Assembly (NCBI GenBank): GCA_003243955.1
Contig: QHCE01000057.1
Coordinates: 1,991 to 65,990, forward strand
DNA from: Acidimicrobiales bacterium
GTDB taxonomy: Bacteria > Actinomycetota > Actinomycetes > Mycobacteriales > QHCE01
DNA: 64,000 bases
Direction: 5' to 3'
Part shown: positions 23,912 through 29,697 of the stretch, in pieces
How the letters are laid out: every line of letters begins with the position of its first letter
Position numbering within the stretch: position 1 is the first letter of the stretch
Made by a program: the position numbers and the translations under genes
Notes under the pieces: model-generated
What the model was told of the DNA's origin: nothing
Databases searched by the model: none
Seen by the model: only the letters and a program-made list of their open reading frames with translations

Positions 23912-25270
23912 TTAGACCCTTCCAACTGCGCTCCCCCGACTTTCCGAGCCACGCCCGCTATGCGGCGCCTGCGCCGGGTAGGACTCAGGCTGATCTATTG
24001 GGCCAGCGAAGTGCTTTTGTGTCCAGAGATAAATGGGAGATGCCGCCAATGTGGTGGCAATGGTCATCAAGGCAAGCACGGTATAGAGCTCAGTGGTGAT
24101 GAGGTGTTTCTCCAATCCAATGTTGAGCAGAATGAGCTCCATCAGGCCTCGGGCATTCATAAGGGAGGCGAGGGACAGCGATTCTTTTTGCGTCGACCCA
24201 GTGGATCGGCACGCGACGTAGCATGCGCCGCCCTTGCTGATAACGGCCACAGCGGTGATGAGCGCGAGCACGCTTAAAGTTAACGGATTGAGTAGCAGCC
24301 GTAGGTCAGCTTGCAGCCCGGAGTACACGAAGAAAATTGGCAACAGAACAGTGACTGTGAGCGGTTCCATCCATCCACGTAGTTTCTCGGCCAACTCACC
24401 ACGAGGCATGACAGCACCGGCAATAAACGCGCCGAACACCAGGTAGACGCCAATTACCTCGGTTAGCGTGGCGCAGGCAAGCGCGATTAGCGCGCCAATG
24501 ACAACGATCTGCTGTGTGTCGATGCGTATCCGGCTTGCCATGTGCCGCAGCATCGGACGGCCGATGAACACCATGCCAAGGACGTAAATGAGCGATCCGC
24601 CAAGCGCAAGTAGAACTGTGAGCAGATTACCGGTAGCGGTAGAGATCACCAAGGCGAGCAGAATCCAGGCCACGGCGTCGTCCACTGCGGCGCAGGCGAG
24701 AGCCATGGTACCGATACGGGTATGGGTCAAACCAGTTTCATAGATGATCCGAGCAAGCATGGGGAACGCTGTAATCGCGATGGCCGAGCCGATGAAGATC
24801 GCGGCCTGCCAAGGTCGGATATGTCCAGGGAAGAATCTGTCCGAGAAGGTGAGTAGCCACCCGACAGCGCCTCCGATCAGGATAGGGGCGAACACTCCAG
24901 CAGCGGAAATTTTCGCTGCCTGACCCCGGTGTCGAGAAAGTAGCTTGACGTCGAATGCCAAGCCAACCACGAACATGTAAAACACCAGCCCTAGCTGGCC
25001 CAGCACGTAAAGAATCTGCACGGATGGGTGAGTGATGGTTGTCGCGTCACCTCCCACGTGGAGCGTAAATTTGGTGGGGAAGAGACCATGCTGCAGCGCG
25101 GGCCACATGGCTCCCAGGAGGGTGGGGCCAAGAAGGAACCCGGACACCATGTCAGAAACAACCTGTGTTTGACCAAGCCGACGAAGTGCGGCTCCTATCA
25201 AGCGACACACCGCCAGGACTACGACCAGCTGCACGAATAGATGTGTGGCAAGCTCAGCATTGGTAGGCAT
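23912..25270 (-). CDS. cation:proton antiporter (CPA2/Kef-type membrane domain, no KTN domain)
   Basis: 452 aa and polytopic, with an N-terminus typical of Na+/H+-exchanger-family proteins (..LFVQLVVVLAVCRLIG..LGQTQVVSDMVSGFLLGP..). Starts 13 nt after the lyase stop. Confidence 0.85.
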   Translation of the reverse strand: MPTNAELATHLFVQLVVVLAVCRLIGAALRRLGQTQVVSDMVSGFLLGPTLLGAMWPALQHGLFPTKFTLHVGGDATTITHPSVQILYVLGQLGLVFYMFVVGLAFDVKLLSRHRGQAAKISAAGVFAPILIGGAVGWLLTFSDRFFPGHIRPWQAAIFIGSAIAITAFPMLARIIYETGLTHTRIGTMALACAAVDDAVAWILLALVISTATGNLLTVLLALGGSLIYVLGMVFIGRPMLRHMASRIRIDTQQIVVIGALIALACATLTEVIGVYLVFGAFIAGAVMPRGELAEKLRGWMEPLTVTVLLPIFFVYSGLQADLRLLLNPLTLSVLALITAVAVISKGGACYVACRSTGSTQKESLSLASLMNARGLMELILLNIGLEKHLITTELYTVLALMTIATTLAASPIYLWTQKHFAGPIDQPESYPAQAPHSGRGSESRGSAVGRV

Positions 25271-25283
25271 GTCTGGACCCCCA

Positions 25284-26660
25284 TCAGCTTAGGGGCGCAA
25301 AGCGGGCCTGGAAGAACCGCAGATATGGAGGTTCGGACACGAACTTCAGACCGCTGATGCTGTCGCGACGCTTCCACAAGTCGAGGATGGATTCAGCGAC
25401 GACATCGAGGTGGGATCGGGTGTAGACGCGACGCGGAATAGCCAGTCGAACAAGTTCGAGGGTAGGCATCCGGTTAAGACCAGTCTGGGGATCACGGCCG
25501 GCCGAAACAGTGCCGCGTTCGACACCCCGCACACCTCCTTCAACGTAGAGGGCGGCGGCTAACGCCTGCGCGGGGAGCTGCTCACGGTTTAGGTGAGGTA
25601 AAAATGCCGCGGCATCAAGACACACGCAGTGGCCACCAATCGGTTGCACAATCGGTACGCCGGCTTCGTTGAGCAGCTCACCGAGATAGCCGACCTGCTC
25701 AACGCGGGCCCGAATGCTCTCATCGGCGACCGACTCGACTATGCCCTGCGCCACGGCCTCCATGTCTCGTCCGGCCATGCCGCCATAGGTGTGCAGGCCC
25801 TCGTACACCACCACCAGGCTGCGCGCCTGCACGGCGAGATGGGGGTCGCGAAGCCCCAGCCAGCCTCCGATGTTGGCAAAGGAATCCTTCTTAGCCGACA
25901 TCGTCGCGCCATCGGTCAGGTCACACATCGCCCGCAGAATGGCCGCAATGCTGGTATTGGCCCAACCAGGTTCGCGTTGCTGAATGAACCATGCATTCTC
26001 CACCGCTCGAGCGGCATCTAGGATTAATAGGATGCCGTGCCGGCGGGTTATCGTGCGCACCTCATCGATGTTGCTCATCGACACCGGCTGGCCACCCGCC
26101 ATGTTGACTGGGGCGCCTAGCGCAACGTAGGGAATTTGCGCGGCTCCCACGTCAGCTATCAGTTTTTCCAGCTTGTCGCAGTCGAAATTGCCCTTAAACG
26201 GATGGTCGGCGAGAGGGTCATGGGCAATGTCGATGATGACGTCCTGAAATGTGCCGCCGTTGAGCTCCTGATGGATCCGGGTAGAAGGAAAATACATATT
26301 GCCGGGGCACTGATGACCGGGTTTTACCAGTATCCGATTGAGAATGTTCTCCGCGGCGCGCCCTTGGTGGGTAGGGATGATCTCGGAGTAGCCGTAATAC
26401 TCGCGCACCGTTGCTTCTAGGCGGCTGAAGCTACTTGAACCCGCATAGGCTTCGTCCCCCAGCATCATTGCCGACCACTGCCGGTCGGACATGGCATTGG
26501 TGCCGGAGTCGGTGAACAGATCGATATATACATCCGTGGAGGCCAGTAGACAGGTATTGTATCCAGCCTCAACGATTGCTTGCTGGCGTTCTGCCTGAGT
26601 GAGCTGGTGTATGGGCTCCACCATTTTCACTTTCCACGGCTCGGCCGGGTACCTGGCCAT
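25284..26660 (-). CDS. beta-eliminating lyase, tryptophanase / tyrosine phenol-lyase family (PLP-dependent)
   Basis: 458 aa, collinear with TPL/TnaA as I remember them (YPAEP.K.KMVEP, AGYNT.LL.S.DVYIDL.TDSGTNAMSD.QW, PLP-lysine SAKKD, RLAIPRRVYT..H.D). I cannot tell Trp from Tyr specificity by eye. Confidence 0.9.
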   Translation of the reverse strand: MARYPAEPWKVKMVEPIHQLTQAERQQAIVEAGYNTCLLASTDVYIDLFTDSGTNAMSDRQWSAMMLGDEAYAGSSSFSRLEATVREYYGYSEIIPTHQGRAAENILNRILVKPGHQCPGNMYFPSTRIHQELNGGTFQDVIIDIAHDPLADHPFKGNFDCDKLEKLIADVGAAQIPYVALGAPVNMAGGQPVSMSNIDEVRTITRRHGILLILDAARAVENAWFIQQREPGWANTSIAAILRAMCDLTDGATMSAKKDSFANIGGWLGLRDPHLAVQARSLVVVYEGLHTYGGMAGRDMEAVAQGIVESVADESIRARVEQVGYLGELLNEAGVPIVQPIGGHCVCLDAAAFLPHLNREQLPAQALAAALYVEGGVRGVERGTVSAGRDPQTGLNRMPTLELVRLAIPRRVYTRSHLDVVAESILDLWKRRDSISGLKFVSEPPYLRFFQARFAPLS

Positions 26661-28446: not shown

Positions 28447-28507
28447 GGCGTTTCAGGGAAAACGTCGGCACATAGGGTTGTTGGGGGACGATTCCAGGGA
28501 AAACGTC
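28447..28507. repeat. double-palindrome element, copy C (P450 upstream region)
   Basis: GGCGTTTCAGGGAAAACGTC, then 20 nt, then GACGATTCCAGGGAAAACGTC. Coordinates cross-checked by codon index in ORF 28369. Confidence 0.9.
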
Positions 28508-28533
28508 CTCGATACTGCAGCCACGGGAGACGC

Positions 28534-29697
28534 ATGCTGTTTCGGATGTGGGAAAAGCCTGTTGATTGTGGGCACGCGGGAGTCACCCTGACAGACGGCC
28601 ATTGGGTCGTGCACGGGCACAATTTGATCCGCACCGTGCTGGCCGATTTAGTGACGTTTCGCCCAGACAACGCACTCGACGCGGTCACCCCCATATCGGC
28701 GGCCGCGCTGCGGCTACTGGCCGATCACGGATTTCGACTTCCCGCCACGCTCGCCAATAACGGCACATCCTCGCACGAGGCGCTACGCGCGCTAGTCACC
28801 CAAGAGTTGCAACCGGCGCGGATAGCACAGCACCGAGGATGGCTCACTGGAATACTGCGCCGTCGGCTCATCCCTTTAACTCGCAGCCTACGCGCGGGAC
28901 GCCGAGCCGACTTGCATGCAGCCATTTCCCACGACCTGCCGCTGGCGATACTCGCCCGCGTGATGGCACTACCAGACGACATAGCGCGCGGAGTCAAAGA
29001 GTTCTCCGCGGCGGCACTGGAATTGTTTTGGGCGCCGCTGGATGCCGCTCGACAAAATCAGCTGGCCGAGCTAGTCGGTACCTACCACGCTCAGCTGCGT
29101 CGCTTTGTCCGCACTGCGCGCCCAACCATGTTTCCATTACGCGAACGCGCCTTTGCGCAGGGCTTTTCTGAAGATGAAGTGACCGCGGCGCTGTTCTTTC
29201 TGCTCATTGCCGGGCAAGAGACCACCTCACAGTTCCTCACACTGCTCATGCACCGGTTGATGTCGGAAACCACGATTCTGAACGGGCTGATCGACGGTTC
29301 AATCAGCGCCACTGAAGTGGTCGAAGAAGGGCTAAGGCTGGAGTCACCCGTGGTCACCTGGCGGCGGGTAACCACACGAGAGGTCCAGTTAGGCGGCACT
29401 CTGCTACCCCCTGGAGCATCGGTACTGCTCTGGTTAGCCCATGCCGGTCGCGACGACGCCGTGGTGGCTCAGCCTGAGGAGTTTATGCCTGGTCAACCCG
29501 GCTCGCGGCGACATCTCGCTTTCGGCGCCGGCGCTCATCGCTGCGCGGGTGCACAGTTAGCCCGAATGGAAGCGTGCGTCGTCGTGACCGAAGTAGCTCC
29601 ACTGCTCAGGCGCTGCACTGTTATTCAACCGCCGTGGTGCCCGGATAACTTGTCGTTTCGGGCGCCAAACGCACTCATGGTGCAGCTATTCCGCTGA
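28534..29697 (+). CDS. cytochrome P450
   Basis: Heme-thiolate loop FGAGAHRCAGAQLA, I-helix-like LLIAGQETTS, and an ExxR region. The first ATG is at 28534; the listed ORF (GTG 28369) would add 55 aa encoded by the repeat elements. Confidence 0.85.
   Translation: MLFRMWEKPVDCGHAGVTLTDGHWVVHGHNLIRTVLADLVTFRPDNALDAVTPISAAALRLLADHGFRLPATLANNGTSSHEALRALVTQELQPARIAQHRGWLTGILRRRLIPLTRSLRAGRRADLHAAISHDLPLAILARVMALPDDIARGVKEFSAAALELFWAPLDAARQNQLAELVGTYHAQLRRFVRTARPTMFPLRERAFAQGFSEDEVTAALFFLLIAGQETTSQFLTLLMHRLMSETTILNGLIDGSISATEVVEEGLRLESPVVTWRRVTTREVQLGGTLLPPGASVLLWLAHAGRDDAVVAQPEEFMPGQPGSRRHLAFGAGAHRCAGAQLARMEACVVVTEVAPLLRRCTVIQPPWCPDNLSFRAPNALMVQLFR

Follow-up and report, generated by a model that had tools for sequence, protein, structure and literature searches.

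Three minus-strand genes in a 64,000-nucleotide (nt) stretch of DNA from an Acidimicrobiales bacterium (contig QHCE01000057.1 of assembly GCA_003243955.1, positions 1,991 to 65,990; hereafter the window) form an operon that encodes a flavoprotein, a pyridoxal 5'-phosphate (PLP)-dependent beta-eliminating lyase and a membrane protein of the CPA2 transporter family. Judged from its residues, the lyase belongs with tyrosine phenol-lyase (TPL) and not with tryptophanase, yet it is no canonical TPL: the catalytic residues of TPL are kept while the pocket has changed, and it resembles a TPL that has adapted to a substrate with a modified ring. Lyase genes of this clade repeatedly sit beside or after a gene for an enzyme expected to decorate the ring of an aromatic amino acid, either the flavoprotein or the halogenase of a CndH-like cassette; this recurrence is the strongest argument for their function. 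We propose, tentatively and at somewhat less than even chances, that a flavin monooxygenase and a substituted-tyrosine phenol-lyase would act here as a translationally coupled two-enzyme module making a ring-modified phenol. The coupling itself is directly visible, the TGA of the flavoprotein gene abutting the ATG of the lyase gene and 13 nt separating the lyase TGA from the CPA2 ATG, as stated in an earlier reading of the same DNA made without database searches (hereafter the original prediction). These are known kinds of enzyme in an arrangement that is not yet described as a pathway: the original prediction could name none, and full-text literature searches returned neither a pathway nor a description of a natural cluster joining TPL to such a flavoprotein or to a halogenase, the nearest papers dealing with engineered monooxygenase-TPL cascades and with the IptA-tryptophanase and IptA-FMO (flavin monooxygenase) clusters of actinomycetes.

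The lyase and its partner genes

Assignment of the lyase to the TPL and tryptophanase family, with an intact PLP site, is borne out by the SAKKD motif and its Lys257/258. The best NCBIfam model is that of tyrosine phenol-lyase (TIGR02618, 678.7 bits, under the equivalog cut-off of 720.7 bits), and the tryptophanase models TIGR02617 and NF053783 give 462.6 and 518.1 bits (cut-offs of 825.8 and 750, respectively). The lyase aligns without gaps to the solved TPLs (E = 1e-165 to 1e-169) and is 55.5% identical to that of Erwinia herbicola, sharing fold, length and catalytic residues with the E. herbicola and Citrobacter freundii enzymes (EC 4.1.99.2). The catalytic and cofactor residues that are kept, in TPL numbering, are Tyr71 (the general acid), Arg100, Phe123, Asn185, Asp214, Arg217, Ser254, Lys256, Lys257, Arg381, Arg404, Phe448 and Phe449; among them, Y72, K258, R382 and F449/F450 of the window lyase are invariant or nearly so in its aligned relatives.

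The phenol pocket, in turn, carries the changes F36C, L48F, T124P, T125S, M288L, P289H, S378G and M379V. Thr124, which Demidkina and colleagues reportedly found in 2002 to be needed for TPL activity on L-tyrosine, is replaced by Pro125 in the window lyase, with Ser126 standing for Thr125. In an alignment of 26 lyase relatives, the resulting FPSTR motif (Pro124, Ser125) is found in the window lyase and in all relatives at least about 70% identical to it, except P0135 (69-70%, FTTTR), and the more distant relatives carry FTTTR. In TPL, the substrate hydroxyl is hydrogen-bonded by Arg381 and Thr124, Phe36 and the adjoining Met379 line the pocket, and Phe448/449 close over the substrate; replacing Met379 by Val or Ala enlarges the site, such that bulky 3-substituted tyrosines are handled (PMC9262865), and M379V has been used for the same purpose elsewhere (PMC13578870). 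The window lyase thus has naturally the Val379 of the engineered TPLs that are combined with monooxygenases in cascades, and a flavin enzyme, a putative oxygenase, is encoded in the same operon; it differs from them in being a natural system and in its extra pocket changes.

The residues diagnostic of tryptophanase (Asp, Ile and His at TPL positions 124, 381 and 448) are absent, Pro, Arg and Phe being found instead, and a tryptophanase or indole identity was rejected on these residues and on the model scores. According to the indole option of the original prediction, the lyase would free indole from tryptophan and the flavoprotein, together with the neighbouring cytochrome P450, would oxidise it to indoxyl and indigoids. 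Flavin monooxygenases (FMOs) are known to oxidise indole, and one locus (L050) links a tryptophanase-type lyase with two flavoprotein paralogues and a sulfotransferase. The window lyase, however, has Arg382 and Phe449 as in TPL and Pro where tryptophanase needs Asp, it scores far nearer TPL (679 bits, against 463-518 on the tryptophanase models), and the P450 is probably unrelated to the unit, all of which makes the indole option highly improbable. Actinomycetes do put the tryptophanase family into small specialised-metabolite clusters, as in the IptA-TnaA prenylindole clusters (PMC3617294); the window lyase belongs to the same enzyme family, but differs in those three positions and is accompanied by no prenyltransferase.

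A lyase with the signature C/F/P/S/V, in place of F/L/T/T/M at TPL positions 36, 48, 124, 125 and 379, is encoded directly downstream of the flavoprotein, with gaps of at most 17 nt, in six independent loci including the window (Table 1), and the genes flanking the pair differ at each locus; CPA2 is absent from the other five. Canonical TPL loci from a metagenome scan served as a negative control, among the matches listed. There, 79 of the 80 lyase loci have the canonical signature, the exception being L093, and a flavoprotein-like sequence is found in none of these 79, although in 47 of them the available upstream sequence reaches 1.6 kb or more. Linkage to the flavoprotein is therefore seen in six of nine signature loci versus none of 47 canonical loci (Fisher p = 2.6e-6).

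The three FPSTR-type loci without the flavoprotein (L169, L170 and L093) have their lyase gene behind an adenylation-thiolation (A-T) didomain and a flavin-dependent halogenase, so that FPSTR-type lyase genes are always linked to a putative ring-modifying partner, whereas those of canonical TPLs are not. The lyase of L169 has Val rather than Cys at position 36, its signature being otherwise the same, and L169 alone among the three has a thioesterase. Its halogenase matches CndH (PDB 3e1t) with 564 bits, and the presumed target of chlorination by CndH is a tyrosine analogue tethered to a carrier (PMC8407142). The same lyase clade is thus found behind cassettes resembling the carrier-dependent tyrosine halogenation of the CndH/SgcC3 type; the window differs from these in having the flavoprotein instead, and the searched literature describes no lyase in known halogenase pathways. 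The cassette shared by L169, L170 and L093 is, in its own right, a candidate route to chlorophenols via chlorotyrosine.

A plainer reading would make the lyase a functional TPL of tyrosine catabolism or phenol detoxification, with the flavoprotein hydroxylating the phenol for disposal. TPL is indeed the best family match, and Arg381, Tyr71 and Phe448/449 are kept. Thr124 is Pro, however, which also tells against a canonical TPL as the phenol side of the original prediction; moreover, no ring-cleavage genes lie nearby, none of the 79 canonical TPL loci listed needs a flavoprotein partner, and the same lyase clade follows a halogenase cassette. We therefore regard simple catabolism as quite unlikely.

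The flavoprotein family and the CPA2 protein

The oxidoreductase is, as first described, a two-Rossmann flavoprotein (GAGPGG at residue 16 for FAD, GKGNSA at residue 190 for NAD(P)H, with ATGF at residue 287) followed by an unassigned C-terminal domain. Pyr_redox_3 is the only Pfam match (residues 13-330, E = 7.6e-43), residues from about 360 to 514 having none; the best NCBIfam matches, YpdA and ArsO, fall far under their cut-offs (77.5 bits against 339.9 for the YpdA/Bdr model TIGR04018), and sequence matches in the PDB are weak and partial (phenylacetone monooxygenase). In Foldseek searches with an AlphaFold2 (AF2) model (pLDDT 85), the core resembles Bdr/YpdA (7a7b), a Staphylococcus aureus protein (3d1c) and SMFMO (4a9w), with target-normalised TM-scores of 0.77-0.82 and matches ending at about residue 370. 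More widely, SMFMO, CFMO (4usq), 3d1c and 7a7b share with it the core (TM 0.74-0.82) and the GxGxxG, GxGxxA and ATG motifs; with respect to these Pyr_redox_3-type proteins, the window flavoprotein has some 150 extra C-terminal residues and is 18-20% identical. In an exhaustive HMMER search, this C-terminal domain was found essentially only at the C-terminus of Pyr_redox_3 proteins of the same kind; the full-length hits bear it at that end, the five that were checked against Pfam are all Pyr_redox_3, and the matches also include many fragments and a handful of long proteins hit in several stretches. Modelled alone by AF2 (pLDDT 90.9), it has no significant fold match in the PDB (best Foldseek E = 0.085, TM at most 0.40).

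At least 4,496 homologues (E at or below 0.001) were found among 8,000 candidates scored. The best 120, which come from actinomycetes and from Anaerolineae, Acidobacteriota and Gemmatimonadetes metagenome-assembled genomes (MAGs), are 42-64% identical over the full length and 503-561 aa long (one truncated call has 415 aa), and a genome scan extends the family to cyanobacteria, myxobacteria and proteobacteria. Invariant motifs run along the whole length, the C-terminal 150 residues included. SCO7468, the FMO of the sister IptA-FMO type of cluster (PMC3617294), is a 45-kDa protein and thus too small for the extra domain.

As to class, the fingerprint of FMOs and Baeyer-Villiger monooxygenases (BVMOs), FxGxxxHxxx(Y/F/W), does not lie between the Rossmann motifs; its sole regular-expression match is at residue 328, after the ATG motif, the His of this match is not conserved in the family, and the BVMO motif is absent. 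A disulfide reductase (YpdA/Bdr or thioredoxin reductase) was rejected, neither a CxxC or CxxxxC motif nor an invariant Cys being found in the flavoprotein or the family alignment; the lack of the conserved Cys sets it apart from Bdr in particular. The CzcO type, raised in the original prediction as an example of an unrelated known role, was likewise set aside: no gene for a cation diffusion facilitator (CzcD) is present in the window locus or among the called genes of the inspected loci, the partner transporter is a CPA2 protein, and the label 'CzcO' on P0011 and P0081, like 'thioredoxin reductase' on some homologues, is a source (Joint Genome Institute, JGI) name without functional evidence. 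The protein thus falls in no family of known unrelated role, and we read its sequence as that of an NAD(P)H flavoenzyme whose core is class-B-like, for which we infer an oxygenase activity.

Such an activity could also be directed at sulfur. The lyase would then be a cysteine S-conjugate beta-lyase, and the flavoprotein would S-oxygenate its substrate or the thiol released. TPL and tryptophanase accept S-alkylcysteines, S-oxygenation is typical of FMOs, SMFMO and CFMO, which we take to be sulfoxidising enzymes, are among the structural neighbours, and the loss of Thr124 fits a leaving group other than phenol. Nevertheless, the residues that hold the phenol ring, Arg381 and Phe448/449, are retained without exception, and the sister context is a CndH-like, tyrosine-type halogenase; carbon-sulfur chemistry accordingly seems very unlikely to us.

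The genomic contexts of the family were counted with tblastn probes in 80 sampled genome loci, clustering of longest-open-reading-frame (ORF) neighbours being too noisy in high-GC loci. A set made of an FMN-dependent alpha-hydroxy-acid oxidase (FMN_dh), a P450 and a CPA2 protein occurs in 33 of the 80, mostly in the order FMN_dh-P450-CPA2 right after the flavoprotein, with some inverted or rearranged sets and a few without CPA2; most of these 33 also have a response regulator and a histidine kinase. An acyl-CoA-ligase-like gene is found in 31 of the 80 loci, a second flavoprotein paralogue with an aromatic ammonia-lyase of the 4-methylideneimidazol-5-one (MIO) type in 16, an adenylation (A) domain of a nonribosomal peptide synthetase (NRPS) within 10 kb in 20, a sulfotransferase in eight and a halogenase in five. 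An Anaerolineae locus and an Actinomadura locus have the flavoprotein inside NRPS clusters, and in Streptomyces sp. NPDC015127 (L087) the order is flavoprotein, CPA2, cupin, halogenase and molybdenum hydroxylase. The family thus lives in specialised-metabolism contexts.

Two of these contexts deserve a description of their own. A conserved cassette, of which Dactylosporangium L086 (3582-15105) is a clear example, comprises genes for an acyl-CoA-ligase-like protein, the flavoprotein, an FMN alpha-hydroxy-acid oxidase, a divergent P450, CPA2, a response regulator and a histidine kinase, often joined by a second flavoprotein paralogue with an MIO aromatic ammonia-lyase, or by a sulfotransferase. 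It recurs in L014, L019, L022, L023, L030, L037, L039, L042, L063 and others, mainly actinomycetes, and outside them in MAGs labelled Melainabacteria (L019, complete) and Proteobacteria (L071, flavoprotein-FMN_dh-P450 only); no paper on it was found in the searched literature. In the Polyangiaceae MAG L050 (551-9749), the two flavoprotein paralogues are in tandem, the lyase near them has the full tryptophanase signature (Asp, Ile, His), and an ABC transporter accompanies the sulfotransferase; this locus could be a route from indole through indoxyl to a sulfate ester.

The NRPS contexts bear on the direction of the lyase reaction. Run in the synthetic direction, the lyase would join pyruvate and ammonium (or serine) to a phenol that the flavoprotein has made or oxidised, giving a non-canonical tyrosine to be used further. 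TPL is reversible and M379V variants are so used (PMC9262865, PMC13578870), so that the operon would be nature's counterpart to the engineered monooxygenase-TPL cascades. An A-T didomain able to load such an amino acid adjoins the lyase in L169 and L170, many flavoprotein homologues lie in NRPS clusters, and one is fused to an A-peptidyl carrier protein (A-PCP) didomain (P0312). Yet no NRPS or other consumer of an amino acid is encoded beside the pair in the window, L001-L006, L171 or L172, physiological phenol concentrations disfavour synthesis, and no source of phenol is encoded. We know of no natural TPL that works in this direction, and consider synthesis unlikely, if somewhat less so than the other alternatives.

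The window CPA2 protein consists of the membrane domain only (Pfam Na_H_Exchanger, PF00999, E = 3.6e-54, 184.5 bits), no KTN/RCK regulatory domain being found in it. Its closest relative among the fetched loci is the CPA2 protein of L087 (53% identity), whose gene directly follows that of a flavoprotein homologue. Although CPA2 proteins are diverse, their association with the flavoprotein is real at the family level, as shown by the locus counts (30-32 of 80, about 40%) and by the fusion proteins (Table 1). KefC and KefB, with KefF and KefG, likewise tie a CPA2 membrane domain genetically to an NAD(P)H flavoprotein, but the window CPA2 has no KTN/RCK domain, the fold of the window flavoprotein is different, and the scores on the KefB, KefC and TIGR00932 models (75, 56 and 140 bits) are below the respective cut-offs of 804, 752 and 238, far so for KefB and KefC. 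By analogy with KefF and KefC, the flavoprotein might nonetheless be a redox-sensing or ancillary subunit of the antiporter, the lyase gene being an unrelated insertion. The frequency of CPA2 in flavoprotein loci, its position directly after the flavoprotein in L087 and the P0307 fusion, which puts the flavoprotein where Kef proteins bear their nucleotide-binding domain, fit such a role. The five other flavoprotein-lyase loci have no CPA2, however, most members of the flavoprotein family are in NRPS or other enzyme clusters without it, and CPA2 is also fused to an unrelated halogenase, favouring a shared product over a dedicated regulator. We hold the subunit reading to be doubtful, about as improbable as simple catabolism.

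Locus layout, composition and neighbouring elements

Features of the window and of the compared loci are collected in Table 1. The operon lies between pyrR and the bio genes, in agreement with the original prediction. For the flavoprotein, the start is probably Met4 (28196), because of better spacing to the ribosome-binding site and agreement with the 511-aa database entry P0001. Records 100% identical to the window proteins are labelled differently, the flavoprotein (P0001) as Mycobacteriales bacterium and the lyase (P0121) as Acidimicrobiales bacterium, although the longest contig bearing each has 131,801 bp; the records thus disagree on the taxonomy of this MAG. Promoter, terminator and Rfam scans gave nothing useful within the operon.

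Table 1. Genes, domains and repeats of the window, compared loci and fusion proteins (positions are in the window unless a locus is named)
Feature	Position (nt)	Strand	Basis or remark
Flavoprotein, 514 aa as ORF	26661-28205	minus	ORF map; Pfam Pyr_redox_3
FAD/NAD(P)H two-dinucleotide-binding core, residues 8-360	27126-28184	minus	Motifs, Foldseek
Family-specific C-terminal alpha/beta domain, residues 362-514	26664-27122	minus	HMMER, AF2 model
TPL-like PLP-dependent beta-eliminating lyase, 458 aa, remodelled phenol pocket	25284-26660	minus	ORF map; TIGR02618, PDB alignment, residues
CPA2-family transporter, 452 aa, membrane domain only	23912-25270	minus	ORF map; PF00999
pyrR	23121-23726		Flanks the CPA2 end of the operon
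Cytochrome P450 ORF, callable from GTG 28369	28369-29697	plus	ORF map
Cytochrome P450	28534-29697	plus	Pfam p450, heme motif
bioD, bioF, bioA	from 29675 on		After the P450 gene
Divergent intergenic region with three copies of palindromic box TTYCAGGGAAAACG	28206-28533
Box copies	28372-28390 (inverted), 28450-28466, 28488-28507
Pair locus L001			Stackebrandtia
Pair locus L002			JGI metagenome contig with sigma-54 genes
Pair loci L003-L006			Micromonosporaceae; identical sequence, counted once
Pair locus L171			Contig with TonB-dependent receptor gene
Pair locus L172			Tamaricihabitans halophyticus DSM 45765; phage-type integrase two genes downstream of the lyase
Halogenase cassette L169	4294-11398		Actinoallomurus iriomotensis; CPA2, thioesterase, A-T didomain, halogenase, lyase
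Halogenase cassette L170	6642-11383		A-T didomain, halogenase, lyase
Halogenase cassette L093	55-4786		CPA2, A-T didomain, halogenase, lyase
Fusion P0307, 980 aa			CPA2 membrane domain and flavoprotein; single contig
Fusion P0315, 908 aa			CPA2 membrane domain and flavin-dependent halogenase; 5 member sequences
Fusion P0312, 1105 aa			A-PCP didomain and flavoprotein

The low GC content of the operon had first been estimated by hand on single 60-nt lines. Recomputed values (38.3, 48.3, 51.7 and 70.0%) show that the counts were accurate for the lines chosen, but these lines are extreme and overstated the contrast, the mean being 56.6% for the three-gene operon and 61.9% for the window. Composition nonetheless differs from the background and looks foreign for the operon as a unit, which is the lowest-GC 4.3-kb stretch of the window (z = -2.3, bottom 1%). 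The flavoprotein gene (GC 53.3%, third-position GC3 55.9%) carries most of this signal, and the lowest-GC 1.5-kb stretch of the window, 27001-28500 (z = -3.1), spans most of it together with the intergenic region; the lyase (59.4%) and CPA2 (57.2%) genes are each mildly low only. The operon was probably acquired horizontally, because of its low GC and GC3, its patchy taxonomy and the integrase near the Tamaricihabitans pair; in the window itself, neither flanking repeats nor a tRNA gene or integrase mark the insertion.

The P450 has the heme-thiolate motif FGAGAHRCAG at 385, and EEGLR (EXXR) and the I-helix AGQETT are seen in its translation. Its best PDB matches (6ldl, 6gii and 6ro8) are described only as 'Cytochrome P450' or 'P450 RhF'; we take them to be CYP116-type P450s. 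Since the ORF from GTG 28369 begins inside a repeat element, ATG 28534 is likely the start. Its inclusion in the metabolite cassette of the original prediction was rejected as unsupported: its GC content (61.0%) is that of the window background, it is absent from all other flavoprotein-lyase loci, and no similarity to the P450 of the actinomycete flavoprotein cassette was detectable. The P450 is thus probably not part of the flavoprotein-lyase unit.

The repeat element consists of two perfect 21-nt palindromes, GACGTTTTC-NNN-GAAAACGTC, 41 nt apart. It occurs twice in frame inside carB (ORF 16043-19597, minus strand), at 17594-17656 and 18212-18274, each copy adding about 28-30 residues while the ORF stays open (1184 aa); one of them interrupts the region just ahead of the conserved YETVMxNCNPETV motif. 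A third copy and an inverted box lie between the flavoprotein and P450 genes (28372-28507). The core pattern has seven matches, versus 0.04 expected, and the arrangement resembles the in-frame palindromic elements of Rickettsia.

Elsewhere in the window, the Rfam model of the PyrR binding site matches weakly and below threshold at 23673-23776 on the minus strand (29.4 bits, the gathering score being 54); the match includes the start codon of pyrR (23726), running from about 50 nt upstream to about 50 nt into the coding sequence, approximately where a pyr attenuator would be expected. Four tRNA genes are clustered at 35224-35810; the first, Lys-TTT, is on the minus strand, and the plus-strand genes Glu-TTC, Asp-GTC and Phe-GAA follow it. 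The N-terminus of BioA, as called from TTG 33142, holds the peptide SVPPS three times in tandem (33041-33094, minus strand), in '...TSVPPSSVPPSSVPPSSVTSG...', which suggests that either the start is called wrongly or a nucleotide tandem repeat precedes the true one.

Proposed function and significance

The proposed module would work as follows, its substrate, product and order of steps, and the role of the transporter, being what we infer. The flavoprotein would be an NAD(P)H/FAD-dependent oxygenase of a new family, and the lyase, with its pocket enlarged and the Thr124 hydrogen bond lost, would act on a tyrosine substituted on the ring (at position 3 or in some other way), breaking its Cbeta-Cgamma bond and releasing pyruvate, ammonium and a substituted phenol. 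The ring substituent may come from the flavoprotein, or this enzyme may oxidise the released phenol further. In the simplest case, tyrosine would be converted to a 3-hydroxylated tyrosine and then to a catechol-type product; alternatively, phenol may be turned into a dihydroxybenzene after cleavage. Ring modification followed by cleavage is the favoured order, because lyases encoded after the halogenase cassette share essentially the signature of the window lyase, and would yield a catechol-type product in the window and a chlorophenol in L169. Kef systems (KefB, KefC) protect cells against electrophiles; the CPA2 protein might export the product or, by analogy with Kef, use K+/H+ exchange to shield the cell from a toxic phenolic or quinone product.

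Several observations weigh against this proposal. Every pairwise association within the operon recurs, flavoprotein with lyase in five further independent loci and lyase with CPA2 in L093 and L169, but the exact trio, whose conservation as neighbours was at stake in the original prediction, is found in no other sampled locus. Of the pocket changes, M288L and P289H also occur in loci with the canonical signature, and actinomycete lyases in which Thr124 is retained can likewise have small residues at 36 and 379, so that T124P/T125S is the only change that is truly specific to the clade. On the side of the flavoprotein, the canonical FMO motif is missing from its usual position, and such flavoproteins usually oxygenate soft nucleophiles or carbonyls, rarely aromatic carbon. 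The A domain of the halogenase cassette has the Stachelhaus code DAWELGLVFK, which could not be assigned to tyrosine. As for the transporter, the CPA2-flavoprotein fusion P0307 rests on one contig, and the window CPA2 is 34-37% identical to fused CPA2 proteins and to an ordinary Flavobacterium CPA2 alike. Finally, catechol formation is not a given, as M379A TPL handles L-DOPA poorly (PMC9262865).

A bolder version, which we think as unlikely as the synthetic direction, is that the flavoprotein family, whose C-terminal domain is a fold orphan, would represent a new class of oxygenases acting on aromatic rings, that together with the lyase clade it would constitute an unrecognised PLP route to hydroxy- and halophenols distinct from the chorismate-lyase/4-hydroxybenzoate route, and that the CPA2 proteins, some of them fused to the flavoprotein or to a halogenase, would be obligate membrane partners of these flavoenzymes rather than ordinary ion antiporters.

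If the two-enzyme module does make a ring-modified phenol, nature already uses the Met379 to Val change of engineers and couples the lyase to an oxygenase or a halogenase, and these genes would offer enzymes already suited to the biocatalysis of non-canonical tyrosines and substituted phenols; the flavoprotein-lyase pair is available in a cultured strain, Tamaricihabitans halophyticus DSM 45765. A PLP-lyase route to small (halo)phenolic metabolites would also be added. The flavoprotein family has thousands of members now annotated only as 'NAD(P)-binding domain-containing protein', and the module would provide the first functional handle on this family as well as on the cassette of flavoprotein, FMN oxidase, P450, CPA2 and two-component genes.

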